From a virus (lineage: Duplodnaviria > Heunggongvirae > Uroviricota > Caudoviricetes): a stretch of 64,000 nt of DNA. Of this stretch, positions 3,441-45,333 are shown piece by piece. Below the pieces are notes generated by a model that saw only the letters and a program-made list of their open reading frames with translations, made no database searches and was not told the DNA's origin. Each line of letters opens with the position of its first letter. Within the stretch, counting starts at the first letter, position 1. Location: IMG/VR virus record IMGVR_UViG_3300045988_154997, positions 32,001-96,000 of that record; one strand, given 5' to 3'. The position numbers and the translations under genes were made by a program.

Positions 3441-5549
3441 TCACTTCAAAATGATACGAGATAGTTCAGTAACTACAGATGAACCAAGACTATCAACGCT
3501 CGTTACCAGGGCATGGTTTGCGTAAAATCTCTCCGGTGCGTCAGTCATGATGCCAATTGCCATCAAATCAATGTCAGTCTGCGTTTCAATTTGCTTCGCA
3601 ACCGAACGCAAATGAGCGTCAAAACCTCTCCCAACAGCCCACGGCGCGCCATCGCTTAGAACAAGCATGATCTTCTTGTCCTCCATGCGACCAGAAAATA
3701 ACGATGCAAGGCTGGCTATGCTTTCACCATCCACGTTATTAAGAAGTGGGAATGTGTAGCCTACGCACCCCATACGTGAGCGAACTTCGCGAGAATTGGC
3801 CTTTTCATTCCAATTTTTGATGATAGGTAGCATTAAAGATTCAAAGCGAGAGAACTCATACTTGATTGCCTTAAGCTCTCCTGCTGCCATATGACTACCA
3901 AATGTTGTGAAGCCGGTGATAATGTTGGGAACATTTATTCGATCAAGCGCATCGGCGATGGTATATGCACTTGCAAGAGCCAGTTTAATCGTTTCGCCGC
4001 TCATTGAACCTGATAAATCAATCACTTGTTGAACACAGGCGTTAACGGCCTTAGATTCTTCTTTTTTACGAAACACGCGATCATCATTCATTGCTAATCT
4101 GTAGATACTAGAACCATGAATGCGCCCCCGACGCTGGCCCGGTATAAACTGAACTCTGTTTCTGCTTGCAATTGCACGCTCCAGGTCTTTTGCCAGCGTC
4201 GACGAAACACCTGACGAAAGATGCTTTTCAATATATTTGTCGAAGAGTTGGTTGCCTTCAGGAACGATGCGATAACGGCTGATTGGATATCCACCTAAAT
4301 CAATATCGGAGAATGTTTTAATAAGCCGTTTGATATGGGCTTCTGCCTGATCAATCGAACCGATGAAGTCGTATGAGCGATTGTATGGCCTGTATTCGCT
4401 TTTCGAGCTTTCTGTTAACTCGCTTTTAATCGTTTCGGATAGTGCATCTTCTGTCATGCCTCCGACTTCATCTTCCATGCTATCAAGCTCCTCTAAAGCC
4501 TCTTCCAGACTCATTTTGGACGGAGTGGGAATGTCTGAAGAGCCGTCTTCTGCCGTTTTTCTTTTTTCGTGATCCGAGGTAGTTGCTTCTGTCGTCGCGC
4601 TATTGGAAGTATCAGAATCTAATACCTCTTTATCATTTTTTGTATCATCGAATATTGTTTCTGATGATTCAGAATTATCTGAATCATCACTATCGTTATT
4701 ATCATGTATGTACTTACCTTGTGACTCATCATCTATAGATATGTGGTTATCTAGCATCTCATGTGTCTTGTGATCTTCATTGTCTTCATTACTTTCTCCA
4801 GAGGAATCCGCTTGGTCAGCGTCTGAAGGATCGGGAGTTTTTCCCGGAGCTGACTCCTTACCTTTGCTTTCACTTTCAGTGTCTTTGAGGATCTTAGCTA
4901 TGGTCGCAGCCACCTTTACACAATCCTCGGTGCAGGACATGTTACGCGCGGCCACATCGATACCATGTTTTTTTAATAATGAAATTGGTTTCTCAATGAC
5001 AGGCCAGTATTCATCCATGAAATCTACGAACGGTGCTTGGCCATCCCAGGCTCTTACAACCGGACAGAGAAAGAAGTTTAGAAAAAGCGCGCGCTGATCT
5101 TTGCCACAATAAGCAATAGCCTCTGAAGCCTTTGGTTTAAAGACTTTTTCGATTATAAGGCGCTGAGTTGCCATCAGATTACGTCTTGTTCCGTTAAAGA
5201 CCTGACCCATTTTTCGCTCGATGAACACGTCTTCTAAGGCATTCCATAGCGACCAGGAAGGAACGCGTCCTTTTTCTCTCATTTTGTTGGACACACGAAT
5301 ATCGGTAAACAAAATGTGAGCAACCTCATGATCGAGAAATCCGCGCACAGCATTCATCAATGCCGGTGTTGCGTTATCCGGGATTGATGGGATGTTTACG
5401 AGAATTGGCTCTCCATCATCGTTATAGCGTACATAAGCGTCGTCCCCTCGTTCTGCAACAGGGATGTTTTTACCTGAAAGGAGAGCGACTACTCGTTTTA
5501 CACTGTCACGGAAGTCCTGAACCTCTTTGATGGAACGTTTTTTAGACAT
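3441..5549 (-). CDS. von Willebrand factor A domain protein, CobT-like partner of the AAA+ ATPase
   Basis: MIDAS-like motif VIDLSGSMSGE near the C-terminal third; long acidic Asp/Ser/Glu-rich low-complexity linker; 702 aa. Confidence 0.65.
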   Translation of the reverse strand: MSKKRSIKEVQDFRDSVKRVVALLSGKNIPVAERGDDAYVRYNDDGEPILVNIPSIPDNATPALMNAVRGFLDHEVAHILFTDIRVSNKMREKGRVPSWSLWNALEDVFIERKMGQVFNGTRRNLMATQRLIIEKVFKPKASEAIAYCGKDQRALFLNFFLCPVVRAWDGQAPFVDFMDEYWPVIEKPISLLKKHGIDVAARNMSCTEDCVKVAATIAKILKDTESESKGKESAPGKTPDPSDADQADSSGESNEDNEDHKTHEMLDNHISIDDESQGKYIHDNNDSDDSDNSESSETIFDDTKNDKEVLDSDTSNSATTEATTSDHEKRKTAEDGSSDIPTPSKMSLEEALEELDSMEDEVGGMTEDALSETIKSELTESSKSEYRPYNRSYDFIGSIDQAEAHIKRLIKTFSDIDLGGYPISRYRIVPEGNQLFDKYIEKHLSSGVSSTLAKDLERAIASRNRVQFIPGQRRGRIHGSSIYRLAMNDDRVFRKKEESKAVNACVQQVIDLSGSMSGETIKLALASAYTIADALDRINVPNIITGFTTFGSHMAAGELKAIKYEFSRFESLMLPIIKNWNEKANSREVRSRMGCVGYTFPLLNNVDGESIASLASLFSGRMEDKKIMLVLSDGAPWAVGRGFDAHLRSVAKQIETQTDIDLMAIGIMTDAPERFYANHALVTSVDSLGSSVVTELSRIILK

Positions 5550-7804: not shown

Positions 7805-8794
7805 TTGATTTACTTGAAAATGGCTGGTTTTATAGTATTGTCATGCGATCGCTGCAACAGGATAAGAAAAATGATAAAAGAGACACCGGAAGTCAACACG
7901 CTATCTGAGTTATTAGGGGCTACGCCTCCCAAACCTCAGCTAGTAGTGACGACTAAAGGTATTGATTTAGGTCTGGATATCTCCCTCGGAGATTGGAATA
8001 ACTCTTCATTATTATCACGACCTTCAGCTTTGTTAGCAATTGAGCATGGGGAAAATTTATTTGAACTCATGGATAAAGAGTTAGGTCTTGTTGGTATTAA
8101 TGAAGAAGGAGTGATCAAGTCAAACATCATTATCGAACTAGATCCCCATAAAACAACTATGAGAATATTAGGTAAAATTGCGGAAGCACTCATTGTTGAA
8201 GAATGTGAAAAAAACGCGAAACAAAATGAAAACTGGGCATTATTAGCAAAGAGATATACCCCTTTCACAGATAGTTTGTCTAATTATAAAGCTGTTGGGA
8301 CTGGACTCAACTATACGAAAATTAACTATCCTACTAAATATCAACCTAATGATACTCAACGGGACATTGTGTGGATAGACAAACGAGACCCACTTTCTCA
8401 ATTACTTATTTCTGCTCCAACGTCGAATTCAGGTATACAGGCTGGAATTCAAGTGAAGGTCAGTGCAAATGGTCTTAACTATCTATCACCAATGGATTTT
8501 TCTAGCAGAAGATATGAGGTCCCTATTGTTTACTTTGATTTAAATAATGATTTTTTTGAAATTCAGATGAAGATAGTGAACTCAGGAATTGATTCGGTTT
8601 ATGGAATGGATTATCACCGTGGTAGAAACATTTCTCCTGAAATACATGAAAAACTATGTGCATATTATAACCTTATATACTCCATTATCATTGGTGATAT
8701 GAAATTAGAGGCTCTGTTACTAAATGAAGAGGCACTGAAAGGGTATGTGACTGAGATTAAAGATAGACAAGGTAAAAGAATAATCGTGACGTGA
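7805..8794 (+). CDS. hypothetical protein (329 aa), AT-rich cargo gene
   Basis: Long ORF in a roughly 35-38% GC segment; no recognisable motif; true start may be an internal Met. Confidence 0.5.
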   Translation: MIYLKMAGFIVLSCDRCNRIRKMIKETPEVNTLSELLGATPPKPQLVVTTKGIDLGLDISLGDWNNSSLLSRPSALLAIEHGENLFELMDKELGLVGINEEGVIKSNIIIELDPHKTTMRILGKIAEALIVEECEKNAKQNENWALLAKRYTPFTDSLSNYKAVGTGLNYTKINYPTKYQPNDTQRDIVWIDKRDPLSQLLISAPTSNSGIQAGIQVKVSANGLNYLSPMDFSSRRYEVPIVYFDLNNDFFEIQMKIVNSGIDSVYGMDYHRGRNISPEIHEKLCAYYNLIYSIIIGDMKLEALLLNEEALKGYVTEIKDRQGKRIIVT

Positions 8795-8986
8795 AAACCT
8801 AAACTGTAAAGGCAACAAAAGGTGAAATAATAACTCATTAAAAGCACATTGTGTGAAATTTTAATCTGATAATTCATATATCGGAAGGGATTTTAGATAT
8901 TTTTAATATTTATAACTGTCCTTTTCATAGATATAGTTGATTTGAGCGCACACTTTCATGTAAAAAGCCGCCTAAGCGGCTCTTAA

Positions 8987-9232
8987 TTATAATGTACTCA
9001 CCAGAGCGGCGAATTCCGTATAGCCACCGATAGATTCGCCATTTACGAACACCTGCGGTATGGTCTCCACCGGCTTGCCAACCAGGGCGCTCAATTTCTC
9101 TTTGTCTATCCCAGCAGACACAATATCGATGTATTCGTAATCGCCAAAACCGTGACCGTGAAGCTGCTTCGCCAGCTCGACCGCACGTTTGCAGTATGAG
9201 CAGTTATCTCGTCCATAGATAGTGATCGTCAT
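8987..9232 (-). CDS. glutaredoxin-like protein
   Basis: 81 aa; N-terminal MTITIYGRDNCSYCKRA with a CxxC redox motif (CSYC) and overall glutaredoxin/NrdH-like layout. Confidence 0.75.
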   Translation of the reverse strand: MTITIYGRDNCSYCKRAVELAKQLHGHGFGDYEYIDIVSAGIDKEKLSALVGKPVETIPQVFVNGESIGGYTEFAALVSTL

Positions 9233-9372
9233 TGCTTTGCCTCGTTATGCGCTTCGCTGGGGAACGTGTAGCGGTTAGTGAAAGAGCTGAGGTGGTAGTG
9301 CTCGTGAATGTATGGATTTGACTTCTGCACCTGACGAGATGCGCGACGCGCATGTTTACATTTATTTCCCAT
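9229..9372 (-). CDS. small hypothetical protein (47 aa), translationally coupled to the glutaredoxin gene
   Basis: Internal ATG at 9372 preceded by GAAAGGA RBS; stop overlaps the glutaredoxin start (ATGA). The longer track ORF would start inside the conserved intergenic motif. Confidence 0.3.
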   Translation of the reverse strand: MGNKCKHARRASRQVQKSNPYIHEHYHLSSFTNRYTFPSEAHNEAKQ

Positions 9373-9428
9373 ATTGAGTCCTTTCAAGTGAGTATCCGAA
9401 AGAACTATACAGTTAACGTGCGTAAAAA

Positions 9429-9448
9429 GTAAGTGCTTACCTATCATT
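9429..9448. promoter_or_regulatory. recurrent intergenic motif GTAAGTGCTTACCTATCATT (palindromic core GTAAG-TG-CTTAC)
   Basis: Exact 13-mer CTTACCTATCATT also at 15558-15570 and 27927-27939; sits in the divergent region between the glutaredoxin operon and the 273-aa gene. Confidence 0.5.
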
Positions 9449-9521
9449 TATTGATAGAAGAATAGCCGCCTGTCGTGTGATACTATTTACAGAACTAAAC
9501 TGGCTTTCCACAAGGTGTAAA

Positions 9522-10343
9522 ATGACTATCCTTGAAAATCCTGATGCGAATGTTGAATCTGTTTATAGTCTTCATCCAACCACGTTGTTTCATTTTACAA
9601 AAAACGAAGATGCTTTCTATAGCATATTGGCTGAGAAATATTTTAAACCATTTCTTGCTCGCGAGGAAATAAGAGGAGTCGGGGGACGCAGGAGGTTTGC
9701 AGTACCAATGGTATCGTTTTGTGACATAAAACTATCACAAATCAGAGATCATAGCGGAAAATATGGAGAATTCGGTCTTGGGCTAACTAAGTCTTGGGCG
9801 GAAAAGAAAGGTCTACACCCAGTTCTATATATGAATAAGAGTAGTGAAATATTTTCTAAATACAATGCCAGAATTCGACTTATTAAAAATAAGTTGGTGC
9901 CGCTTTGGAAGGCTAGAGGAAATTTAGATACCAAAAACAGAATAGAGTTTGAGAAATTGAAAGCAGAATATTCTGATCTATATAATTTACTGCGTTATAT
10001 GAAAAATTACAGAGGCAAGCTAGAGCGAAAAGATAATAAAACAATAGAGAATTATATATATGCAGACGAGAAAGAGTGGCGTTATGTGCCAGCTCCTTTT
10101 ATTGGTGATTTATGGCCTAGTCTGAGTTTGGAGCGTGTTATCACTTCTGATGACAAAGCAAAAATTAGCTCAAAATTTTCAAAGTTTGGCATTGATTTTG
10201 AGTTCAATGATATAAAATATATACTTATACCTAAAGAACAACATATCCAAAAGCTAATTAACTTTCTCTCAGGTTTAGATGGATTTGAATCTTCAATTAT
10301 TAGCAAAATTCTGACCATGGATAAAGTAAAGCAAGATTTTTAA
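9522..10343 (+). CDS. DUF2971/Abi-like protein (tentative family assignment)
   Basis: ATG at 9522 with AAGGTG RBS. Motifs LFHFTK...FYSIL, FAVPMVSFCD...HSGKYGEFGLGL and C-terminal EKEWRYV echo the LYKY / MWSHY..HKGFCIGF / E.EWR pattern of the DUF2971-like protein at 23116-23835. AT-rich. Confidence 0.45.
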   Translation: MTILENPDANVESVYSLHPTTLFHFTKNEDAFYSILAEKYFKPFLAREEIRGVGGRRRFAVPMVSFCDIKLSQIRDHSGKYGEFGLGLTKSWAEKKGLHPVLYMNKSSEIFSKYNARIRLIKNKLVPLWKARGNLDTKNRIEFEKLKAEYSDLYNLLRYMKNYRGKLERKDNKTIENYIYADEKEWRYVPAPFIGDLWPSLSLERVITSDDKAKISSKFSKFGIDFEFNDIKYILIPKEQHIQKLINFLSGLDGFESSIISKILTMDKVKQDF

Positions 10344-10369
10344 TTTTTGGTTTAACGGGAGCCTAATTA

Positions 10370-11581
10370 GTGTCAATATTTTTAAGCGAAAAGGAAATGC
10401 AAAATTGGATAATTGACAAATTATCTGATCAAGATGGATTATATAATTCAATCATCAATATTGATAAATTAAATGAATTTAATCCGAAAAGACCCGAAGA
10501 GAAAAAAATTAAGGAGAGTTATCAGTTTTGTTTAAAGAACATAACATTGTTACATTTAATGACAGATGATGAGAATATCTCAGCAACAAAATCTGAGATA
10601 TTAAGACCTGATGTCGTTGCTTATTCAACAGAGAATGAATCCTTAGTTCTTATTGAGTTAAAAAATTTTTCAACACCAACAAGGGAAGCTGGAACTGAGC
10701 TAGTGGCATATGCTGCGGAACTAAAAAGTTACTTGTCATACTTGTCTGATGGAGATATTACCAATGTACTTATATCACCTGACTGGCCACCTTTGGTTAG
10801 ACACTTTATTTTTAATATGATCGTGTGGCAGAAGAAAAACTTTCTATGTTTAGAACCTTGCTATGATTTACAAGGTAACGTATCACTTACTCCTTTAGAT
10901 ATTAATAAATTAGTTATTGCGGAAGAAGCACTCAAGTTCTCATTTCGTCATCTTGGCGGGTTTCATATATGTTTGTATGATGATGAAATGTATAATCAAC
11001 CGACTTCCACTTCTCGTTTACATTCGAAATTGAATGTTATTAAAGCCAGCATGGCAAAAATGTCCTCAGACGGTGAAAAGACTAATAGCCATGGGTTTGC
11101 TATTTTATGTAGAAATTTGAACGAGAGAACTTTAGCACCATATACGATTACTCTAGTTAATGTTTCTGCGTTTTCTTCCATAGAGCGATACTTTCATTCG
11201 CCACAAATATCCAATGCTTCTCAACTCCCTAGAATAGGACAAAAAATTTATGACATTTACACTCATTACCAACCATCAGGTTTTGGGGCATCAATGTCGA
11301 AAATTTACAATTCTGGGAGGGCATATTTAGAAAAAATTAATTGCAAGCCGCGGATCGAGGTTATAGACACCTGGGATGTATTGCAAGTACATACACATGC
11401 GCCTTATATGGAAATGGTTCATATTGAAACGTGGGGAGTTTTTAAAGAAAAATTGATTGAAGGTCTAAATGAATGTTATGAGGATGAATATTACACACCT
11501 GATTTTAACGATGTAGATTTTTGCATGGTGTGTATTGAATCCTTAATTGACCAGAATTATGAATTTATAAAACTTTTTTGA
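10370..11581 (+). CDS. PD-(D/E)xK nuclease-like protein with unknown C-terminal domain
   Basis: N-terminal ILRPDVVAYSTENESLVLIELKNFS fits a D ... E-x-K restriction-endonuclease-fold signature; GTG start at 10370 with GGGAG RBS; 403 aa; about 33% GC. Confidence 0.5.
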   Translation: MSIFLSEKEMQNWIIDKLSDQDGLYNSIINIDKLNEFNPKRPEEKKIKESYQFCLKNITLLHLMTDDENISATKSEILRPDVVAYSTENESLVLIELKNFSTPTREAGTELVAYAAELKSYLSYLSDGDITNVLISPDWPPLVRHFIFNMIVWQKKNFLCLEPCYDLQGNVSLTPLDINKLVIAEEALKFSFRHLGGFHICLYDDEMYNQPTSTSRLHSKLNVIKASMAKMSSDGEKTNSHGFAILCRNLNERTLAPYTITLVNVSAFSSIERYFHSPQISNASQLPRIGQKIYDIYTHYQPSGFGASMSKIYNSGRAYLEKINCKPRIEVIDTWDVLQVHTHAPYMEMVHIETWGVFKEKLIEGLNECYEDEYYTPDFNDVDFCMVCIESLIDQNYEFIKLF

Positions 11582-11584
11582 AGA

Positions 11585-11604
11585 AAAGGGGCCGAAGCCC
11601 CTTT
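11585..11604. terminator. stem-loop AAAGGGGC-cgaa-GCCCCTTT, probable intrinsic terminator, likely bidirectional
   Basis: Directly after the stop at 11579-11581; on the minus strand it is followed by TTTTCTTC, so it also ends the tRNA transcript. Confidence 0.55.
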
Positions 11605-11680
11605 GAATATTGCGCTGAAAAAAAGTGTTGCTAGGATGTTAGCAAGCTATGGTTAAGAACGTCTGCCGTAATTGTCAATC

Positions 11681-11758
11681 ACAGCGTTGAGCGGTCTGGT
11701 TTATGTTAGCGGAGTCTTAATCGAGTTGATTAAAAGGCCAAACCGCTCAACGCTGTGT
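11681..11758. repeat. 16-bp perfect inverted repeat (CACAGCGTTGAGCGGT / ACCGCTCAACGCTGTG) forming a long hairpin abutting the tRNA-Ser 3' end
   Basis: Read directly; arms separated by 46 nt. Confidence 0.6.
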
Positions 11759-11759
11759 C

Positions 11760-11846
11760 TGGCGGAGAGTAATGGAATCGAACCATCATCGTTTGCACAA
11801 TGGGACGATTTTCAAGACCGCTTGAGCACCATGCTCCCTACTCTCC
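11760..11846 (-). tRNA. tRNA-Ser (anticodon TGA), type II with long variable arm, CCA encoded
   Basis: Minus-strand sequence GGAGAGT...CGGTCTTGAAAATCG...GGTTCGATTCC...ACTCTCCGCCA: 7-bp acceptor stem, anticodon loop CTTGAAA, T-loop TTCGATT. Confidence 0.7.
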
Positions 11847-12070
11847 GGCCGTTGTGGTGGCCGGTACTGAATCTCCGGCATACGGTGCAGCCAATTAGGA
11901 CTACGGACGATCACCGCTCGCGAAAGGGAAGATTTGCGGCCGCATTTCCCTAACATCCAAGAAAGCTATCGCATCAGTCTGCGAATCCACCACAACGGTA
12001 AGATCACTACCTTTCGACCAGTCATTGTGCACATGAACGACGATTAACCGTAATGATCTTATCGTTGTAT

Positions 12071-12147
12071 TGGTGCCGGTTAACGGACTCGAACCGCTGA
12101 CATCCTGCTTACAAGGCAGGCGCTCTACCAACTGAGCTAAACCGGCA
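12071..12147 (-). tRNA. tRNA-Thr (anticodon TGT), CCA encoded
   Basis: TGCCGGT-TT-AGCTCAGTTGGTAGAGC-G-CCTGC-CTTGTAA-GCAGG-ATGTC-AGCGG-TTCGAGT-CCGTT-AACCGGCA-CCA; canonical cloverleaf. Confidence 0.85.
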
Positions 12148-12150
12148 ATT

Positions 12151-12237
12151 TGGTGGGGAGTGATGGAGTCGAACCACCCGAGTCGCAATGACAGTAGATT
12201 TACAGTCTGTCCCGCTACCTCTACGGACTAACTCCCC
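12151..12237 (-). tRNA. tRNA-Tyr (anticodon GTA), type II, CCA encoded; two non-canonical pairs in the anticodon stem
   Basis: Anticodon arm and variable arm AGACTGTAAATCT.C.GTCAT closely resemble E. coli tRNA-Tyr as recalled from memory; acceptor GGGGAGT/ACTCCCC; T-loop TTCGACT. Confidence 0.65.
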
Positions 12238-12242
12238 TAAAT

Positions 12243-12317
12243 TGGCGATGGTGGGTGGATTCGAACCACCGACCAGTTGGTTAACAGCCAACTGCTCTAC
12301 CGCTGAGCTACACCATC
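12243..12317 (-). tRNA. tRNA-Asn (anticodon GTT), CCA encoded
   Basis: GATGGTG-TA-GCTC-AGCGGTA-GAGC-A-GTTGG-CTGTTAA-CCAAC-TGGTC-GGTGG-TTCGAAT-CCACC-CACCATC-G-CCA. Confidence 0.85.
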
Positions 12318-26419: not shown

Positions 26420-26650
26420 TTATGGCACTTTTCTGCCCCATCCACACAATCGCTCCCCTATCATATTGTGAAAAAGTACTTCCCTTTCAGTCTCTTCGGT
26501 CATGAGATCATCACGGCTGATGTATAGCGGTGTAGCCGCATCGCAGAAAAGCACACCAGAGGATTGAGGCTTAATCACGCAACCACTTATTGTGCAACTC
26601 ATGATGAACAGTAGAAGCATCTTTGCGCCGTAACTCATCAAGTGTTTCAT
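26420..26650 (-). CDS. o-spanin candidate (Rz1-like outer-membrane lipoprotein), overlapped with the i-spanin gene
   Basis: Internal start MKHLMSYGAKMLLLFIMSCTISGC gives a signal peptide with lipobox ISGC; starts inside the i-spanin ORF in another frame and ends beyond it. Confidence 0.45.
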   Translation of the reverse strand: MKHLMSYGAKMLLLFIMSCTISGCVIKPQSSGVLFCDAATPLYISRDDLMTEETEREVLFHNMIGERLCGWGRKVP

Positions 26651-26822
26651 TTTTGACATCCACTGTGCTTTGAAGTCGTTTCCTGTCTTCCTGTTTTGCC
26701 TTCTCTTCCATTGCTCGTCGCGCCGCATTTCCGCCCATCGTGTAAGCGCCGACCAGAACGAAAAGAACGGCAGCCAGCGTAATCAAAGCAACTTTTAGCT
26801 TTGTCATCAGGCTGCCTAGCAT
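26571..26822 (-). CDS. i-spanin candidate (Rz-like)
   Basis: N-terminal transmembrane helix KLKVALITLAAVLFVLVGAY then charged helical region; 83 aa; last gene of the lysis cluster. Confidence 0.5.
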   Translation of the reverse strand: MLGSLMTKLKVALITLAAVLFVLVGAYTMGGNAARRAMEEKAKQEDRKRLQSTVDVKNETLDELRRKDASTVHHELHNKWLRD

Positions 26823-26823
26823 A

Positions 26824-27516
26824 TTAGACCATCCCTTTCTGGTGTCTTCTTACCTGCGACCAGGCGATAAATCCAGCCACAACAATAGTGGCAATACCGA
26901 AGATGATGCGTACTGTATCCCCACTAGAGATATGACCTTGTGCTTTATCCATAGCAGCGGAAACCTGCGGCATAACATCGGCCAGCTGCGCCAGACCAAT
27001 ACCTGCTGTAACAGTTGCGCCTGCTGTTTCTTTAGTTACAGGAACAGCCTTCACGGTTTTCACCGGCTTAACGACGCCAGCTCGACGCAGACCTTCCTCA
27101 ATAACTTCTGCCGCATACCAGGTGTTCAGCGTTTTTAGCGGACCTCGCCCATTCTCATGGCGAATGATTGCCTCAACCAAAGGTCGAAGAATGTCGTAAT
27201 CATGCAGATCGATGATCATGTCTGCGGTTACACCAACGGCTTTAGACACCTCATTAATGTAGGCGTCAGTGTTGTTTTCATTCGGCGGTGCCCAACGTTC
27301 AATAACTTCACGAATGGTATCGATACTTGAGCCGTCTTTTGCGCGACGTTTGTCGTGGTAGGTAATTAGAGTCACCGCCAGCGCACGAATCCCCCAAACA
27401 GGGTCTTTAAACGTGCAAAAGCGCGGTTCGTCTGGATTCGCAACCAGACCTTGCCACGGTGATCCTTTATCAAGATTACCGGGGTTATTATTACGAATGC
27501 CTCTCGGAGTCTTCAT
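26824..27516 (-). CDS. lysis-cassette protein, endolysin candidate with C-terminal transmembrane helix (function unverified)
   Basis: Conserved-looking GIRNNNPGNL motif near the N-terminus; hydrophobic C-terminus IIFGIATIVVAGFIAW; sits between the holin-like gene and the spanins. Confidence 0.3.
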   Translation of the reverse strand: MKTPRGIRNNNPGNLDKGSPWQGLVANPDEPRFCTFKDPVWGIRALAVTLITYHDKRRAKDGSSIDTIREVIERWAPPNENNTDAYINEVSKAVGVTADMIIDLHDYDILRPLVEAIIRHENGRGPLKTLNTWYAAEVIEEGLRRAGVVKPVKTVKAVPVTKETAGATVTAGIGLAQLADVMPQVSAAMDKAQGHISSGDTVRIIFGIATIVVAGFIAWSQVRRHQKGMV

Positions 27517-27529
27517 CCTTGATCTCCTG

Positions 27530-27865
27530 TTATTGCAGTCCATTTTTTACGCCATACGCGGCTAACCCCAAAAGCAGTGCAGTAATAAAGAACGACGTTA
27601 TTTTAGAAACAATGCCGCCAAAGAACCCACTGGAGATGGAATCTAACCGGTTAAGGAGTTTGTCCAGATTGGAGTGTTGAATACTATGTTGCGCCGGGGT
27701 CATATCACCAAAGTAGGTTTTCAGCTGATCATTGACCTCCTGGCCAATTTCTTCACGTAGCTCTTTACCTAATTTGCCAACAACCTCCCGAGCAACGATC
27801 GCGGCAATACGCTCAACTTGCTCTGTTGTAACGCTCGCCATCTCGTTCGACATGTTTTCCTCCAT
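27530..27865 (-). CDS. membrane protein, holin or antiholin candidate
   Basis: 111 aa with C-terminal hydrophobic helix ITSFFITALLLGLAAYGV; first gene of the lysis cluster. Confidence 0.3.
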   Translation of the reverse strand: MEENMSNEMASVTTEQVERIAAIVAREVVGKLGKELREEIGQEVNDQLKTYFGDMTPAQHSIQHSNLDKLLNRLDSISSGFFGGIVSKITSFFITALLLGLAAYGVKNGLQ

Positions 27866-27934: not shown

Positions 27935-28168
27935 TCATTCAGCATTGCAACGAACTGATGAGAAAGCACCTACTCCTACCCATCGCCAGTTATAGATGCT
28001 ACCCGCTTTGTATAAGGTATAGTCGTTCACTTTTTTAACAGCATATATGGGTATGACTGTCTCCTGTCCACCAATGATAGCCTCACCGTAACATATAGGT
28101 GTCGGCAATTTCTGGCAGCCAGTAAGAGAGAGAACAACAGCTATTGTTAGAAATAATCTTTTCATCAT
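27935..28168 (-). CDS. small lipoprotein (77 aa); possible superinfection-exclusion protein (Llp/Cor-like by context)
   Basis: Signal peptide MMKRLFLTIAVVLSLTGC with lipobox LTGC; immediately downstream of the tail-fiber locus. Confidence 0.5.
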   Translation of the reverse strand: MMKRLFLTIAVVLSLTGCQKLPTPICYGEAIIGGQETVIPIYAVKKVNDYTLYKAGSIYNWRWVGVGAFSSVRCNAE

Positions 28169-40758: not shown

Positions 40759-43700
40759 TTAGTTACGTTGAGTGTTTGGGTTGAGTGATCCGCCAGGGCG
40801 TTTCTCTTGAGCAATAGTCTCAAGCGCGATTGCTTTCATCCGTTGAGCGGCATTGTTCCATATGCTTTCTGTATCGCCGGATTCAGTTGTGCTACCGTCA
40901 CTATGGACGTTGATCTCAATTGATACCGGAGAAAGAACATTTCCTCCTCCACTCATACCATCGGTACTGAGCGTTACAGGGATTGTTCGGCCATCAGGCA
41001 ATGGAACATACGCCTCATTCATAGAACCTTCCCCAAACAACGCTAATTGAGGCGAGTTAGCAATACCGCCTTTCTGGTATGCCCGGAGCGGGATCACGCC
41101 GTCTTTTCCGAATATTCCTCCATTTGCAAACTTCGGGATTGCAGGAATGCCTTTAGTTCCGTCAGCCACACTGCTGGTTGCGGTTTTAGCAGAGCTTGAT
41201 GTCACGCTGTCGAAACCACCGCCAGCCCAAGCTGAAACAAGACCAGATGCAACCGTTGCTCCAAAACTCAACCACTTATTACCAGAGCCGGAAGCATTAG
41301 CTCCAAGCATTGCAAACGCGGCAGACAGCGCGCCGGTAACAGAGCTTAGGTTCTGCATCGAGAAGATGGAGTCCTTCACTGCTTTTGTCTCAGCATCTTT
41401 GGCTTCAGTGCTATCAAATAGCCCTGATACCCAGCTACCAATCGCATTTGTTGCAGTGCCAATTGCGCTGGTGGTCTGCTGTGTTGTTTGCCCCAATCCA
41501 GTTACCGAACTGGACGTCTCCTTCGTGGCTTCTCCTACTGACTTGTCGCCGTTAACAGTGTTACCCATTCGTACACCTTGATTGGCAACGGCGGAAGCAA
41601 CCCCGGTCAGCAAATTACCACTCTGTGAACTACCAGCTGCGGTGGTTCCCATCCCCAACATGTTCATTAGAGGCAGCGTGATCTGCGACTTCACGACCAT
41701 ATTGGTGATATCTTTCAAAATGGACTGAGATAGGCTGGAGAAGCTCATCTTCCCGTTAATAACGAAATCAGTCAGGGCATCAGTTAAGCCACTAAACAAA
41801 TCAGTCCAGGTGTTTTCGATCTGCTCTGCCAGATTTTCGTATTCCAGTGCCAACTTCTGCGTCGCAGTCCCCGTCTCTTTAATGAGCGCGGTATTTCCAG
41901 CGGCAATAAGTTGATTGATTTTCTTAGTATAAAGCGCCACGACTTTAGGATCAGACGCCTTATCACGAAGTTCTATCAACGCTTTAAGATTACGGTTGTA
42001 GGTGCCTTCGAAATCAGCAACTTTATCTTCGCGAGACGGCGTATAGCCAGCACTAATAATGGAATCCGCCTCCGGTGCCCAAGTGGAGATCATCTGCTCA
42101 ACATTGCGGCGATTAAACATCTCGCGATATTCAGGTGTCGCATTTTTGAGGTCTTCAAGACGTTTTTTCGCCTTGTCGATCATCTCTTGAGTGATGAACT
42201 CGTTAGGAACCGCATTAGCCAAATCTGTCAGCGATTTCGTTGTATCGCGAAGAGACTGATCAAACGATACCGTAGCCTTAGAGCTTTCACCCATTTGCCC
42301 CATAAGCTGATCGGCTTTGTCCAGAGCCTTCTGGTATCCGGCTGCCAGTTTCTGTTGCGCTGCCTGTTCCTTCTTGGCCGCACGCTGCGAGGCGTTAGCT
42401 GATCGTTGGGCTGCTTTCTCGGCAGCTGCTGCATCCTGTTCACGAGCTTTAGTCAGTGCAGCAATGGCTGCGGCACGCTCTTCATCGCTCATTTTCTCCA
42501 GAGAGCTGGCGCTGGATGCTTTCTGCAAATTAAGCTGCGTCTTGAGTTGTTTAGGCCCAATAATCGGCTTACCTTCGAAGTCCATCATCGGAGTGCCGTC
42601 AGGCAAAGTACGTTGATAAGTCGCAGAATCCATCTGGTTTCGCATATATTGCGCCAGCGCCTTCTGAGCTGCTTTATCAGTTGTACCTAACCCAAGAACA
42701 GTCCCCTGGTTTGACATTACGCCCTTACCAGTTTTGGCCGCGTTATCTCTCTCGAACTCTGCCTGAGTCAGCTCCTGAGCAACGGCTTCCAAATGCTCCT
42801 GATAACCACGAATACTGCCTTGCAGTTTCTGGATCTGCTCGGTATTTCCATCCTTTTTGGCTTTTTCAAGCTGATCATTAAGAGTCGCGATTTGCTTCTC
42901 GGTCGCATTCTTACGAGAAGAAAGTGAATCAACCAGTTTTTGCGCAGGCTCCAGATAGCTTTTGTTTACCGTTTCACGTAACGGTGCCAATAGCTTGTTC
43001 TTTTCGTCATCTGAAAGTGAACCGTCATCATTGATTTTCTGGATCTTATCCAGAGCCTCCTGCCGGGCTTTCACGAATGTTGCCGCGAAAATCTGGTTTT
43101 CCGCTCGAATTTTCTCAATCTGAGATTCGGCAGCCTCTTTAGCCAAACGCTTTGCTACAGCGCCGTCACCAAGAGCTATCGTGCCGGTTATCTTTTGATA
43201 CTCTTCCTGATTTTTTTTCAGGCGTGCTTCGATGTCAGCCTTCGACTCTTTGTGAGTAATAACACCGGCAGAGTTAGATACGTAATTAACGCCCTCACCA
43301 TTTTTTAATGCTCGTTGATCAGCGAGAATCTGCTTTTCGAGCTTTTCTGCGCGATCGGCCATCTGTGCTCGTTTGGCCGCTGTCATCGCCTCTGGTATTT
43401 TCCTAATCTCGTCAACGACCTTTGAAGTTTCGCTGCGGAGCATGGTCATGTACGTGATTAGGCCAGCAACAGCTACAGTGGCAACTGTAAATGCTGCCCC
43501 TATAGGGTTTGCTGCAATGAACGCCGTTAATCCCGCAAAAGCGCCTTTAAGCCCCGTAATCGCCCCACGGATGGCGAAAATAAGAGAGGGAATCGGAGCC
43601 AGCCCCATACGTGCCGCACGATTGAATCGAGTTACTGCTGTAGCACCGAGATTAAATGGAGTCTGTATGGCGGTCGCCATCGTGGCAAAGGTGCTAACCA

Positions 43701-45333
43701 TCTGGCTCCCAGCGCCAACTACCCCCATGATCCCTGCTCGCATCAGTTTGAACGCAACCATCGCGGCCACGACCTTACCGAGATTAATTACCAGCTCTTG
43801 GTTCTTTGCTAACCATTGAGCAAGCTGACGCAACCCATCGATTGCCGTTGTTAACCCCGAACCTAAAGAATTGGCAAACGAAATCCCTTCGGCGCTATTC
43901 ATGATTGAAGCCAGTTCTTTCATCCCCTTCGATAGAGAATCCAGATATCCGGCCTGACCAACCCGATCAGCAAATAACGTGAATGACGTCTGAAGTTGCG
44001 CCAGCGCACCTGTGTAGGTTTGCATCATGTCTTTCGCTGCGTTCTCATTCTCCGCACGCAGACCAACAAACATCAGAGACAACGCCTGTTTTGCCTCAAC
44101 CGTACCGCTGGCAACGGCTTTAGTCAGTTCCCCCATAGTGATGCCTGCGGCGTCTGCCATTGCCTGCATCGCGTTAGGAACGGCTTCACCTAATTGCTGA
44201 CGTAGCTCTTCCATTGACACAACGCCCTTACCGGACATCTGCTGAACGGCCACAGCCGCACGTTTCAACAGCTCACTATCACCACCAAAACGAGCAACGG
44301 AGTCCACCAGCGCCTTCAGAGAACCATCGGTTGGATCTAAGCCAGCAGAACGAAACTTCACGAAGGAGTCTGTTAACGCCTGCATCGCGAACGGCGCATT
44401 TTGAGCCATGTCTACGATGTACCTCATATCATCAGCGGCAGCCTGGCCCGGGTTGGACTTCTCCTTATTCAACCCTCGAAGCATCACCCGCATACGTTCC
44501 ATTTCGGCCGCAGCTTCAACAATAGGCTTCTGCCACCCAAACATGATGTCAGTAACCGTTCTGGCTGCATCTCCGATCTCGCCAAGCAGGAAAATGTTGC
44601 CACGAAGGCCAGAGAACATACCTCCTTCGTTACTTTTACCGCTATGGCCAGAAGCGCCGCTACGCCGCCCGCTACCACCATCGCCACTTCCAGATGTACG
44701 AACGCGTACCGGCTTGCTAATCAGTTGCTGACGTCCGATAACTTCGTCCATCTGCTCACGAACCTTTTTCAGTCCCTCGGCAGCCTGACTCGTTGTGACA
44801 CCCCAATTACTGAGTCGCTTCGTCGTGGTATTAAGGCGCGTATTCATGCCACTCACGGACGCAGAGGCTTCTTTGACCTCCGTACCAAAGCGGCTTGCGC
44901 TTTTGCTTGCATAGGTCGCCCAATCAGAGAAATCATTTAGCTCTGATTGCACTTTACGTAATGACGCGGTGAGTTTATCTACTGAAGAAGTTGTCGTATC
45001 GACGCGCTCAATCAGGGCTTTAAGACCAGAATTGAGGCTGGTGATGTTGCCACGCATTTTACGCGTAGCATCTGAAGCAAGCTCAAAACCGGCAGCTACA
45101 TCCTGTAGTTTATCTGCCGTAGAATCGAGCTTGCTTTCCAGAACGCCAATGATACGGGCGACCGAACCCAAAGAGCGTTCAAAGGTTTGGATTTTTTGAG
45201 CAGGCTTTGTTACCTGCTCACCAAATCGAGTAAGCAGTTTCCCCGCACGATCGATTGACGCTGTAAACTGTTTGTCTTCCAGCGACAGGATAAACTCTAC
45301 GTTTTGTGACATTCCCTTGTCATCCTCTGCCAA
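40759..45333 (-). CDS. tail tape measure protein
   Basis: 1524 aa, alpha-helical, Ala/Gly-rich with hydrophobic segments; follows the G/T chaperone pair. Confidence 0.85.
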   Translation of the reverse strand: MAEDDKGMSQNVEFILSLEDKQFTASIDRAGKLLTRFGEQVTKPAQKIQTFERSLGSVARIIGVLESKLDSTADKLQDVAAGFELASDATRKMRGNITSLNSGLKALIERVDTTTSSVDKLTASLRKVQSELNDFSDWATYASKSASRFGTEVKEASASVSGMNTRLNTTTKRLSNWGVTTSQAAEGLKKVREQMDEVIGRQQLISKPVRVRTSGSGDGGSGRRSGASGHSGKSNEGGMFSGLRGNIFLLGEIGDAARTVTDIMFGWQKPIVEAAAEMERMRVMLRGLNKEKSNPGQAAADDMRYIVDMAQNAPFAMQALTDSFVKFRSAGLDPTDGSLKALVDSVARFGGDSELLKRAAVAVQQMSGKGVVSMEELRQQLGEAVPNAMQAMADAAGITMGELTKAVASGTVEAKQALSLMFVGLRAENENAAKDMMQTYTGALAQLQTSFTLFADRVGQAGYLDSLSKGMKELASIMNSAEGISFANSLGSGLTTAIDGLRQLAQWLAKNQELVINLGKVVAAMVAFKLMRAGIMGVVGAGSQMVSTFATMATAIQTPFNLGATAVTRFNRAARMGLAPIPSLIFAIRGAITGLKGAFAGLTAFIAANPIGAAFTVATVAVAGLITYMTMLRSETSKVVDEIRKIPEAMTAAKRAQMADRAEKLEKQILADQRALKNGEGVNYVSNSAGVITHKESKADIEARLKKNQEEYQKITGTIALGDGAVAKRLAKEAAESQIEKIRAENQIFAATFVKARQEALDKIQKINDDGSLSDDEKNKLLAPLRETVNKSYLEPAQKLVDSLSSRKNATEKQIATLNDQLEKAKKDGNTEQIQKLQGSIRGYQEHLEAVAQELTQAEFERDNAAKTGKGVMSNQGTVLGLGTTDKAAQKALAQYMRNQMDSATYQRTLPDGTPMMDFEGKPIIGPKQLKTQLNLQKASSASSLEKMSDEERAAAIAALTKAREQDAAAAEKAAQRSANASQRAAKKEQAAQQKLAAGYQKALDKADQLMGQMGESSKATVSFDQSLRDTTKSLTDLANAVPNEFITQEMIDKAKKRLEDLKNATPEYREMFNRRNVEQMISTWAPEADSIISAGYTPSREDKVADFEGTYNRNLKALIELRDKASDPKVVALYTKKINQLIAAGNTALIKETGTATQKLALEYENLAEQIENTWTDLFSGLTDALTDFVINGKMSFSSLSQSILKDITNMVVKSQITLPLMNMLGMGTTAAGSSQSGNLLTGVASAVANQGVRMGNTVNGDKSVGEATKETSSSVTGLGQTTQQTTSAIGTATNAIGSWVSGLFDSTEAKDAETKAVKDSIFSMQNLSSVTGALSAAFAMLGANASGSGNKWLSFGATVASGLVSAWAGGGFDSVTSSSAKTATSSVADGTKGIPAIPKFANGGIFGKDGVIPLRAYQKGGIANSPQLALFGEGSMNEAYVPLPDGRTIPVTLSTDGMSGGGNVLSPVSIEINVHSDGSTTESGDTESIWNNAAQRMKAIALETIAQEKRPGGSLNPNTQRN

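Follow-up and report, generated by a model that had tools for sequence, protein, structure and literature searches.

The window analysed here is a 64,000-nt stretch (positions 32,001 to 96,000) of the IMG/VR virus record IMGVR_UViG_3300045988_154997, and it belongs to an SSU5-like phage-plasmid of Escherichia coli. On its minus strand lies a late four-gene lysis cassette encoding, in order, a 107-aa holin-like membrane protein, a 230-aa endolysin, an i-spanin and an o-spanin (Table 1). The element shares 97.6% nucleotide identity with Escherichia phage PhiR41_1, 94% with Cyrano and 82% with SSU5, and the 24 kb of the window that were compared (20000-44000) are 100% identical to E. coli plasmids NZ_CP104116.1 and NZ_JBXRYI010000003.1, records of about 112.6 kb each. 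Annotation was read from pYLPM7a, a near-identical plasmid record that is not identical across the window.

Table 1. Coordinates of the lysis cassette and its parts, in positions of the window
Feature	Position	Strand	Basis
Cassette: 107-aa holin-like protein, 230-aa endolysin, i-spanin, o-spanin	27853..26420 overall	(-)	ORF calls
107-aa tail-anchored membrane protein, "holin-like"	27530..27853	(-)	ORF, Shine-Dalgarno, hydropathy, phrog_5093
230-aa Enc34/M4Lys-type endolysin	26824..27516 (stop codon included)	(-)	PDB 7Q47, phrog_873, M4Lys/SSU5 identity, AF2
Predicted catalytic domain, residues 1-150, PHA02564 family, all-helical, lysozyme alpha-lobe-like	27067..27516	(-)	Enc34 alignment, pLDDT
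C-terminal membrane module of the endolysin, residues 159-230	26827..27042	(-)	Hydropathy, charge statistics, M4Lys alignment
Helix 1, weakly hydrophobic, Gly/Ala/Ser/Thr-rich, residues 164-189	26950-27027	(-)	Hydropathy
Helix 2, strongly hydrophobic, residues 204-222	26851-26907	(-)	Hydropathy
i-spanin, 83 aa, TMD at about residues 7-27, then charged helical periplasmic domain	26571..26822	(-)	phrog_1026, hydropathy, BSPM4 homology
o-spanin, 76 aa from ATG 26650	26420..26650	(-)	phrog_1275, lipobox, BSPM4 homology

This gene order is kept in 77 of 80 related IMG/VR loci and, because the four-gene order recurs in this way and the proteins match PHROG families, the arrangement is not a product of chance. 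An earlier note, made by eye on the same letters, had proposed the order from a holin-like gene through an endolysin candidate to overlapped spanins, and four minus-strand ORFs in the span it gave bear this out. The note has the cassette begin at 27865, where the holin-like frame has its first ATG; the likely start is the ATG at 27853, which has a GGAGGA Shine-Dalgarno sequence and agrees with the start of all homologues. A scan for promoters and terminators gave no site at either border of the cassette, and in the region around it fewer than in shuffled sequence; since no such signal delimits the cassette, its co-transcription with the tail genes is only assumed. Pfam and NCBIfam searches with all four proteins gave nothing meaningful, and a literature search turned up no experiments on an SSU5-type cassette.

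The 230-aa protein results when translation of a 239-aa ORF begins at the second ATG (27516); AGGAG precedes this codon, and the gene calls of SSU5, Cyrano and PGAP use the same start. Residues 10-160 of the longer frame match the endolysin domain of Hafnia phage Enc34 (phmmer against the PDB, 7Q47, E 1.5e-54), and against PHROGs the protein matches phrog_873 endolysin at 9.2e-89. Identity is 64% to the Enc34 catalytic domain, 94% to SSU5 gp27 and 59% to M4Lys of phage BSPM4, the last measured from end to end, C-terminal module included. Trp79, Tyr95 and Glu131 of Enc34 correspond to W75, Y86 and E121, which are invariant in a four-way alignment and across 27 homologues; the codon of the predicted catalytic Glu121, GAG, lies at 27156..27154. 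The AF2 model reaches pLDDT 80-95 over residues 40-150, and its best Foldseek matches are 7Q47_B (E 3e-16, TM 0.81 normalised to the target) and 7Q47_A, with nothing besides 7Q47 chains below E 0.5. Judged by sequence, the protein is an Enc34/M4Lys-type endolysin and not a new enzyme type; its N-terminal part would be an all-helical glycosidase domain related to the alpha-lobe of GH73/GH23 lysozyme-fold enzymes, in which Glu121 probably acts as the catalytic residue together with Trp75 and Tyr86.

Classical families offered no alternative. GH19, GH23, GH24, GH108, amidase_2/3, peptidase M15/M23 and CHAP gave no Pfam or NCBIfam profile match to the 230-aa protein, the Pfam-A and NCBIfam models of lysozymes, amidases and peptidases gave none to its catalytic domain, and the sole Pfam matches were two sub-threshold DUFs in the C-terminal region. 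The earlier note had recognised no classical lysozyme, amidase or peptidase signature in this protein, had pointed to its GIRNNNPGNL motif (residues 6-15) and C-terminal transmembrane segment (199-222 by hydropathy), and had thought that the muralytic enzyme might be divergent or membrane-tethered; all of this agrees with the profile searches, the 7Q47 match and the two-helix C-terminal module. The Enc34/M4Lys class to which this "atypical" enzyme belongs was published in 2019 to 2022, and the SSU5 and Cyrano records already give the gene as "endolysin". Database homologues number more than 2000, mostly of about 230 aa, and chi-like phages encode full-length relatives that share the C-terminal module, with identity of about 55% at 99% coverage. 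The catalytic domain is matched by none of the Pfam or NCBIfam models, and for that reason this family of more than 2000 proteins is systematically under-annotated.

The same catalytic domain is also found inside virion proteins, among them the T7-like K1F gp16 internal core protein, a "tail injection transglycosylase", tape-measure proteins, entries named simply "virion protein", and chain L of PDB 9vvp (molecule name Gp29, 1295 aa). Such company raises the idea that the 230-aa protein is a virion-associated enzyme that pierces the wall at infection, with the real endolysin encoded elsewhere, a reading that we regard as very improbable. In every relative the domain stands free, in a 230-aa form with a C-terminal TMD, between a holin-like gene and spanins, and across the whole near-identical 112.6-kb plasmid no muralytic gene is annotated besides this one. 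A "C40 family peptidase" on the plasmid is located among the tail genes, flanked by "tail assembly protein" and "phage minor tail protein L"; it is probably a tail protein of the lambda K type. The full-length Enc34 and M4Lys proteins, moreover, are toxic or lytic from within (PMC8943055, PMC7143992). The outcome that the earlier note named as refuting its idea did not arise: no canonical endolysin is annotated on the plasmid, and muralytic activity has been measured for homologues of the 230-aa protein.

Enc34 ORF39 (PDB 7Q47, PHA02564) is the closest structural counterpart. It shares the Trp/Tyr/Glu set, the all-helical fold, the arrangement of an N-terminal catalytic domain and a C-terminal two-helix membrane domain, the cassette order, and overlapped spanins of the same family; it differs in coming from a chi-like siphovirus of about 60 kb, where the element here is a phage-plasmid of about 112 kb, and in carrying two short insertions (about 5 and 6 residues) that the 230-aa protein lacks. 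The Enc34 domain is active on sacculi of E. coli, Pseudomonas and Hafnia, and the full-length protein is toxic (Cernooka et al. 2022, PMC8943055). M4Lys, encoded by Salmonella phage BSPM4 next to homologous spanins, is a muralytic enzyme that needs neither holin nor Sec to lyse E. coli; removal of its TMD abolishes lysis, the TMD alone is bacteriostatic, and the cleavage products indicate mainly N-acetylglucosaminidase behaviour (Bai et al. 2020, PMC7143992). This lysis by M4Lys was observed in strongly overexpressing cells, and events during infection may differ. By analogy with M4Lys, the 230-aa protein is predicted to cleave in the manner of a glucosaminidase and to lyse in a TMD-dependent, holin- and Sec-independent way. 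Experiments on M4Lys and Enc34 suggest that it would accumulate tethered to the inner membrane and that its C-terminal module would be needed for the catalytic domain to get to peptidoglycan; activity, topology and timing of lysis are thus provisional properties, transferred from homologues 59-64% identical.

That module consists, in order, of a conserved PVTKET motif, helix 1, a short loop, helix 2 and a basic tail (RRHQKGMV), and it aligns with the C-terminus of M4Lys. Residues 199-222 form the sole strong hydrophobic segment of the protein (Kyte-Doolittle 19-mer up to 2.07). Across 27 homologues the linker carries a charge of +2.2, helix 1 has a Kyte-Doolittle value of 0.95 with 53% G/A/S/T, helix 2 has a value of 2.1, and the tail a charge of +2.4; P159, T161, E163, G174, Q177, P183, S198, G207 and Q221 are invariant. 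The AF2 model places helices at 162-170, 178-194 and 199-229, with pLDDT below 50 over 156-183 and 191-199. A basic linker, a weak and then a strong helix, and a basic tail fit an N-in/C-in hairpin, from which the SAR-like helix 1 could leave the bilayer. Four C-terminal fragments searched against PHROGs matched only phrog_873 and no holin family, so that the module is not supported as a recognisable holin and the idea stays positional.

Comparison with SAR endolysins and pinholins (phage 21 R/S21-68, P1 Lyz) shows likenesses and differences. There, too, a hydrophobic segment holds the enzyme at the inner membrane and lysis is possible without a large-hole holin, and the weakly hydrophobic, Gly/Ala/Ser/Thr-rich helix of the 230-aa protein resembles a SAR segment in that it could leave the bilayer. 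The SAR domain, however, is N-terminal, routes the enzyme through Sec and accompanies another catalytic fold, whereas the module here is C-terminal. Hydropathy found no N-terminal signal or SAR segment in the 230-aa protein, whose N-terminus MKTPRGIRNNNPGNLDKGSPWQG is hydrophilic, with no hydrophobic window before residue 199; a SAR endolysin proper was therefore rejected.

The i-spanin starts 1 nt after the endolysin stop, matches the Rz-like phrog_1026 at 1.7e-23, has Kyte-Doolittle values up to 2.38 over residues 1-34, and is kept in 77 of the 80 loci. The o-spanin matches the Rz-like phrog_1275 at 8.9e-23; its frame is open from 26728, and the start at 26650 is the same as that of SSU5_029. 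Around the end of its signal peptide the sequence reads FIMSCTISG-C-VIKPQ, with the lipobox ISG-C, the lipidation residue Cys24 at 26581..26579 and Val at +2, leaving a mature lipoprotein of 53 aa with two further Cys. As the earlier note had proposed, the gene begins inside that of the i-spanin in another frame and continues past its stop. The frame is +1, the overlap measures 80 nt and the extension 151 nt; the architecture is "overlapped", and the overlap is kept in relatives. All the hallmarks of two-component overlapped spanins are present, namely an N-terminal TMD, a lipobox without Asp at +2 and a start inside the i-spanin gene. The layout is that of the P2 LysB/LysC type, and both proteins are homologous to the spanins of chi-like BSPM4 and belong to the Enc34/Chi family, one of those that a survey of spanins gives as overlapped (Kongari et al. 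2018, PMC6139136). At 83 aa, against the 153 aa of lambda Rz, the i-spanin is short, and it contains no Cys; otherwise the pair shows nothing unusual. After wall breakdown, the inner-membrane i-spanin and the outer-membrane lipoprotein would probably disrupt the outer membrane in the Rz/Rz1 manner.

The least well understood member of the cassette is its first gene. The 107-aa protein has an acidic helical N-terminal part of about 75 aa, a TMD at about 85-102 and a tail of 5 aa by hydropathy; in-frame Met codons stand at positions 1, 5 and 9 of its ORF, with no basic residue between. It matches phrog_5093, of "unknown function", at 5.9e-68, and the family is marked by the motif FGDMTPxQHxxQH, in which one Gly and two His are invariant, and by a conserved TMD that follows it at the C-terminus; here the motif reads YFGDMTPAQHSIQH, with G49, H56 and H60 invariant in family alignments. 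Conservation is highest in the TMD and the juxtamembrane segment, which are rich in Gly (G76, G79, G80, G96, G101). An AF2 model was of low confidence (pLDDT 62, pTM 0.26). Neither Pfam nor NCBIfam matched the protein, a Pfam scan of 24 family members gave only scattered single matches at E>1e-3, treated as noise, and no homology to an experimentally supported holin family was found in Pfam, NCBIfam or PHROGs. What stood of the designation "holin-like" is a small protein with one TMD encoded beside the endolysin, as a holin would be; what did not is any match to a named holin family, phrog_5093 being the only hit.

Two better-characterised proteins were tried as relatives and rejected. Chi-like systems, including phage Siskin with its "new class" endolysin and "class IV holin" (PMC6498227), also place a small membrane protein first, but BLASTP of BSPM4 ORF_37 and the 107-aa protein gave no alignment at E<=100 and hhalign a probability of 0.3%; ORF_37 is N-out/C-in with an N-terminal TMD, and the upstream "holin" of Enc34, which is unrelated too, likewise has its TMD at the N-terminus, where the 107-aa protein has it at the C-terminus. 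The Mu gp25 releasin (DUF2730) is a small, single-TMD, mostly cytoplasmic helical partner of a membrane-tethered endolysin (Chamblee et al. 2022, PMC9239132), and could thus be a functional analogue; its TMD lies at the opposite end, however, and a 24-sequence family profile gave hhalign probability 0.3% against it, and the Pfam searches gave no match to PF10805, so that membership is unsupported.

Taken as a whole, an SSU5-like lysis cassette made up of an Enc34/M4Lys-type endolysin with a membrane module, a partner protein and overlapped spanins is a reading to which we give a probability of roughly 0.85. Its weakest part is the label "holin", as the function of the 107-aa protein is assigned from position only; gene context suggests a membrane partner that may set or gate the timing of lysis, either as a holin or as a regulator. 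Genes of the phrog_5093-like family also head other lysis cassettes, with unrelated endolysins; at four loci (L099, L102, L104, L105) they lie directly upstream of a Peptidase_M15_3 endolysin. On a classical scheme the 107-aa protein would be a hole-forming holin, lethal by itself, that sets the time, while the endolysin waits N-in/C-in for its lesions and the holin independence of M4Lys is an artefact of overexpression. The gene lies directly upstream of the endolysin in all 80 IMG/VR loci, the Gly-rich TMD and juxtamembrane segment are conserved as expected of an oligomerising helix, the charges along the endolysin module suit a catalytic domain on the cytoplasmic side, the annotators of SSU5 and Cyrano call the homologue a holin, and the SSU5-like cassette holds no other small multi-TMD protein. 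We nevertheless find this scheme rather doubtful. Besides the missing homology to named holins, the charged hydrophilic C-terminal tail typical of holins is absent, the tail being KNGLQ with a single charge, and the analogous first gene of the chi-like system in BSPM4 is neither toxic nor required for M4Lys lysis (PMC7143992). Distant relatives of the 107-aa protein also share cassettes with what look like separate holins: several cassettes with unrelated endolysins hold a separate small 2-3-TMD holin-like ORF, one of them phrog_8226 "holin" at 4e-10.

That same co-occurrence favours assigning the membrane lesion or escape to the endolysin's own C-terminal module and leaving the 107-aa protein merely to tune timing, in the manner of an antiholin or a releasin, which we hold tentatively and at somewhat less than even odds. 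M4Lys lyses alone, its TMD alone is bacteriostatic, and co-expression of the upstream gene slightly delays lysis (PMC7143992). Conservation of the module, with its invariant polar residues, far exceeds the need of an anchor, and its weak Gly/Ala/Ser/Thr-rich helix 1, strong helix 2 and basic tail are laid out like a pinholin. Elsewhere the order runs phrog_5093-like gene, endolysin, 2-TMD ORF, spanin, and here it runs phrog_5093-like gene, endolysin with a two-helix module, spanins. Against this stand the lack of sequence similarity between the endolysin C-terminus and any holin family, the lack of similarity between the 107-aa family and Mu gp25 or BSPM4 ORF_37, and the size of a pinhole, which would be too small for passage of a 17-kDa domain; what supports the proposal is positional and by analogy. 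An extended form, in which the first gene is not a holin and its uncharacterised tail-anchored family regulates or triggers lysis, while the module is a built-in pinholin-like escape device that perhaps arose by fusion with the small 2-TMD gene next to the endolysin in related cassettes, seems to us unlikely. A search for a second holin on the plasmid returned three small 2-TMD ORFs (record positions 4120-4320, adjoining an SPFH gene; 93531-93689, DUF3927; 94208-94396), all outside the window, far from the cassette and with no tie to lysis.

The cassette is real but largely ordinary, because its enzyme falls in a class, Enc34/M4Lys, that was known before; the spanin family and the cassette of SSU5 and Cyrano are also on record, and as found the cassette matters little. 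Its interest may lie in a natural swap, as SSU5-like elements combine chi-like endolysin and spanins with an unrelated first gene of mirrored layout, an exchange that could serve to examine how an endolysin with a C-terminal anchor gains access to the wall. Resistance genes occur on SSU5-like phage-plasmids, and knowledge of the lysis genes therefore helps to judge whether such an element is still a functional phage. The phrog_5093-like family was recovered from Enterobacterales phage-plasmids, one gammaproteobacterial prophage and several metagenomic phage contigs; its distant members, used as single queries, found no close relatives in IMG/VR, and scans for them gave mostly SSU5-like elements among genomes and one truncated contig among metagenomes.

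There is also value for annotation. SSU5 gp26-gp30 and Cyrano CYRAN_22-25 are the same cassette gene for gene, at 82-94% nucleotide identity, with holin, endolysin and Rz/Rz1 called at the level of annotation only; Cyrano Rz1 is called too short, as a non-overlapping protein of 39 aa, and PGAP on pYLPM7a names the endolysin "membrane protein" and omits the o-spanin.

The lysis cassette of the window is real and was correctly read, yet ordinary: it is already annotated, and belongs to a known phage-plasmid group and a known endolysin class. The four reading frames named in the earlier note are all present on the minus strand, and the note's observation is correct in every detail (see the table). 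The likely start of the 107-aa holin-like protein is preceded by GGAGGA and shares its position with all homologues; the sole hydrophobic segment is C-terminal, with a tail of five residues beyond it. For the 230-aa endolysin, the ATG follows AGGAG and coincides with the SSU5, Cyrano, and PGAP gene calls, GIRNNNPGNL occupies residues 6-15, and residues 199-222 form the only strong hydrophobic segment. The o-spanin starts 80 nt before the i-spanin stop and ends 151 nt beyond it; its sequence MKHLMSYGAKMLLLFIMSCTISG-C-VIKPQ... constitutes a lipoprotein signal with the lipobox ISGC and Val at +2. A scan of the cassette borders found no promoter or terminator signals, and co-transcription with the late tail genes is assumed.

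Features of the window and of the near-identical E. coli plasmid pYLPM7a (NZ_CP073997.1; L004 and L005 are stretches of it)
Feature	Position	Strand	Remarks
Holin-like ORF, 111 aa	27865..27530	-	likely start ATG 27853, 107 aa
Endolysin ORF, 239 aa	27543..26824	-	likely start ATG 27516, 230 aa
i-spanin, 83 aa	26822..26571	-	N-terminal TMD
o-spanin ORF, +1 frame	open 26728 to 26420	-	76 aa from ATG 26650
Cor superinfection-exclusion lipoprotein gene	27935-28168	-	phrog_1119, 2e-30
Tail-fibre ORF, 1432 aa	29099-33397	-	long Ala/Ser-rich low-complexity region within the N-terminal third, repeated 'GNASTATKLQTAR' segments
Four-tRNA cluster	11760-12317	-	Ser-UGA, Thr-UGU, Tyr-GUA, Asn-GUU
Small 2-TMD ORF	L004 4120-4320		adjoins SPFH-domain gene
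Two small 2-TMD ORFs	L005 about 43531-44396		one DUF3927, one 62 aa

Strong homology shows the 230-aa protein to be a glycosidase-type endolysin with Glu121 as the catalytic residue. It falls in phrog_873 "endolysin" (9e-89), and a PDB sequence search returned 7Q47 (E 1.5e-54), the endolysin catalytic domain from Hafnia phage Enc34. Of the three residues singled out by the Enc34 authors, Trp79 aligns with W75, Tyr95 with Y86, and the catalytic Glu131 with E121; all three are invariant across 27 aligned homologues (down to 55% identity). The AlphaFold2 model is confident across the catalytic domain, and 7Q47 is its sole match among solved structures (E 3e-16, TM 0.81 normalised to the target; the next has E 0.5). 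Salmonella phage BSPM4 endolysin M4Lys is 59% identical over the full length, C-terminal part included, with homologues in other chi-like phages at about 55%. Despite more than 2000 homologues in a protein search, no Pfam or NCBIfam model fits the catalytic part, and so no classical lysozyme, amidase, or peptidase signature was visible to the eye.

Phage Siskin was the first for which this architecture was flagged, under the name "a new class of endolysins" and alongside a "class IV holin" (PMC6498227). The Enc34 domain, which resembles the GH73/GH23 alpha-lobe in its fold, with a permuted core, degrades outer-membrane-permeabilised cells of E. coli, P. aeruginosa, and H. alvei, and the full-length protein is toxic (PMC8943055). 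M4Lys lyses E. coli alone, its upstream gene being dispensable and azide not inhibitory; without the TMD, it is soluble and active on purified peptidoglycan but does not lyse cells from within, the TMD by itself is bacteriostatic, and the muropeptides released point to an N-acetylglucosaminidase (PMC7143992). In light of the Enc34, M4Lys, and Siskin data, the guess of a divergent or membrane-tethered enzyme was right, and publications of 2019-2022 already describe this endolysin type. The catalytic domain is also found at the N-terminus of the 1295-aa solved chain Gp29 (PDB 9vvp chain L), within internal-core/ejection proteins of K1F-like podoviruses, and in "virion protein" genes of Pseudomonas and Burkholderia phages; virion-borne enzymes that pierce the wall thus have this domain in common with the free-standing endolysin.

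The other suggestion of the earlier note, that the muralytic enzyme may lie elsewhere, found no support: the PGAP annotation of pYLPM7a (whole plasmid, 118 CDS) lists no lysozyme, amidase, or muralytic peptidase. One "C40 family peptidase" is encoded in the tail gene region, with "tail assembly protein" on one side and "phage minor tail protein L" on the other, and is presumably a K-type tail protein, as in lambda. When window 26420-27853 is compared with NZ_CP073997.1 37551-38833 (L004), the PGAP labels are "membrane protein" for the endolysin and "hypothetical protein" for both the holin-like gene and the i-spanin, and the o-spanin is left uncalled; Cyrano Rz1 was called too short (39 aa, non-overlapping). 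A spanin survey documents how frequently o-spanins are overlooked by gene callers, and lists the Enc34/Chi spanin family as overlapped (PMC6139136). Both spanins match Rz-like PHROGs and have homologues in the chi-like pair; this strong homology shows a two-component spanin. Beyond the window, pYLPM7a carries three small 2-TMD ORFs remote from the cassette, as well as the trimethoprim-resistance gene dfrA51 and a type I restriction-modification system (rest of the plasmid, including L006 77-553).

By transfer from experiments on proteins 59-64% identical, the endolysin would be tethered to the membrane by its C-terminal module, on which lysis would depend, and would act independently of Sec. 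Residues 159-230 are conserved among Enterobacterales, Pasteurella, and Alcaligenaceae homologues, with P159, T161, E163, G174, Q177, P183, S198, G207, and Q221 invariant, polar residues included; judged from the alignment, such conservation exceeds what a passive anchor would need. Averaged over 27 homologues, a linker of net charge +2.2 leads into a weakly hydrophobic helix 1 (mean KD 0.95, 53% Gly/Ala/Ser/Thr, net charge -1.4), an about neutral loop, a strongly hydrophobic helix 2 (KD 2.1), and a tail of net charge +2.4. Insertion of helix 1 would fit an N-in/C-in hairpin with the catalytic domain in the cytoplasm, as likewise predicted for the Siskin endolysin; if helix 1 is not inserted, the basic tail would favour N-out, an arrangement for which we know of no export route. 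The layout of weak helix, strong helix, and basic tail resembles that of pinholins; against PHROGs, the module matched no holin family. The remaining interest lies in this export problem of the class, and in the uncharacterised first-gene family.

For the 107-aa protein, a timing or gating role is proposed from gene context only. Its sole PHROG match is phrog_5093, "unknown function", and close homologues, those with 63% identity or more, are almost confined to SSU5-like elements of about 100-115 kb. The endolysin lies directly 3' of its gene in all 80 IMG/VR loci, with both spanins next in 77. Neither the chi-like first gene, whose TMD is N-terminal rather than C-terminal, nor Mu releasin gp25 has detectable similarity to it. 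The first genes being dissimilar, SSU5-like and chi-like cassettes are seen to have endolysin and both spanins in common and to differ in the first gene, a natural comparison for this family.

Searching 1.8 billion representatives with a profile (E<1e-3) extended the family to 58 proteins of 100-140 aa. In these, the N-terminal part is acidic and helical, the motif FGDMTPxQHxxQH includes an invariant Gly and two His, and the TMD is C-terminal; the AF2 model of the 107-aa protein is weak (pLDDT 62), with two long helices and a break between them at the conserved motif. Eight distant members (25-45% identical) were placed on metagenome and prophage contigs (L098-L105). Tail-fibre or tail-tip genes precede the family member in the six loci with annotated upstream genes, and a Peptidase_M15_3 endolysin lies directly downstream in L099 (a prophage of Ectothiorhodospira shaposhnikovii), L102, L104, and L105; elsewhere, the member is upstream of a DUF5675 protein (one locus) or a weak phrog_894 endolysin match (one). 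A separate small hydrophobic ORF, resembling classical holins and above the hydropathy threshold, occurs in L098, L099, L102, L103 (phrog_8226 "holin", 4e-10), and L104. Rz-like i-spanins are also present; such cassettes run from the family member through an M15-type peptidase endolysin and a small 2-TMD ORF to the Rz-like i-spanin. From this context at close and distant loci, the family is clearly a lysis-cassette component that works alongside two or more unrelated types of endolysin; its role may be that of the holin, of a second holin, or of a regulator.

The cassette is mosaic among the related IMG/VR loci (L007-L086; examples are L024, L032, and L073). Some combine an endolysin 100% identical to that of the window with an o-spanin at only 66-69%, the i-spanin being at 89% where the o-spanin is at 69%; others have identical spanins and a holin-like protein at only 83%, which suggests recombination breakpoints between cassette genes. 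In L021 and L022, from a divergent SSU5-like lineage whose endolysin is 65% identical, an insertion of about 1.35 kb (4025-5374) separates endolysin and spanins and encodes a 61-aa ORF, a 220-aa ORF, and a 93-aa lipoprotein with signal LFLAGC. Judged by eye, the latter is Cor-like; in the window, by contrast, Cor is encoded upstream of the cassette, between it and the tail-fibre region, 81 nt from the holin-like gene.

Escherichia phage PhiR41_1 matches the region at 97.6% identity, Cyrano at 94%, and Salmonella phage SSU5 at 82%; two E. coli plasmid records of about 112.6 kb each are 100% identical over the 24-kb stretch around the cassette, and these identities place the window within an SSU5-like phage-plasmid. 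pYLPM7a also aligns across all 24 kb with a marginally lower score, and similar stretches (at least 80% of the query covered) occur in 58 complete E. coli genomes. The window starts at record position 10981 of pYLPM7a; the full 64 kb are not identical, one difference falling within the 107-aa protein. Tail-fibre genes and the Cor gene lie 5' of the cassette, and two function-unknown genes and a ParA-like gene lie 3' of it. PGAP starts the large tail-fibre ORF later (record 44101, window 33121), and a second choice of start ATG may matter for the tail fibre. At about 8000-12000, beside the tRNA cluster, GC drops to 0.37 from about 0.46 in the rest; this stretch coincides with plus-strand genes annotated as an AbiGi-family antitoxin and a hypothetical protein, and may be an island of acquired defence or moron genes.
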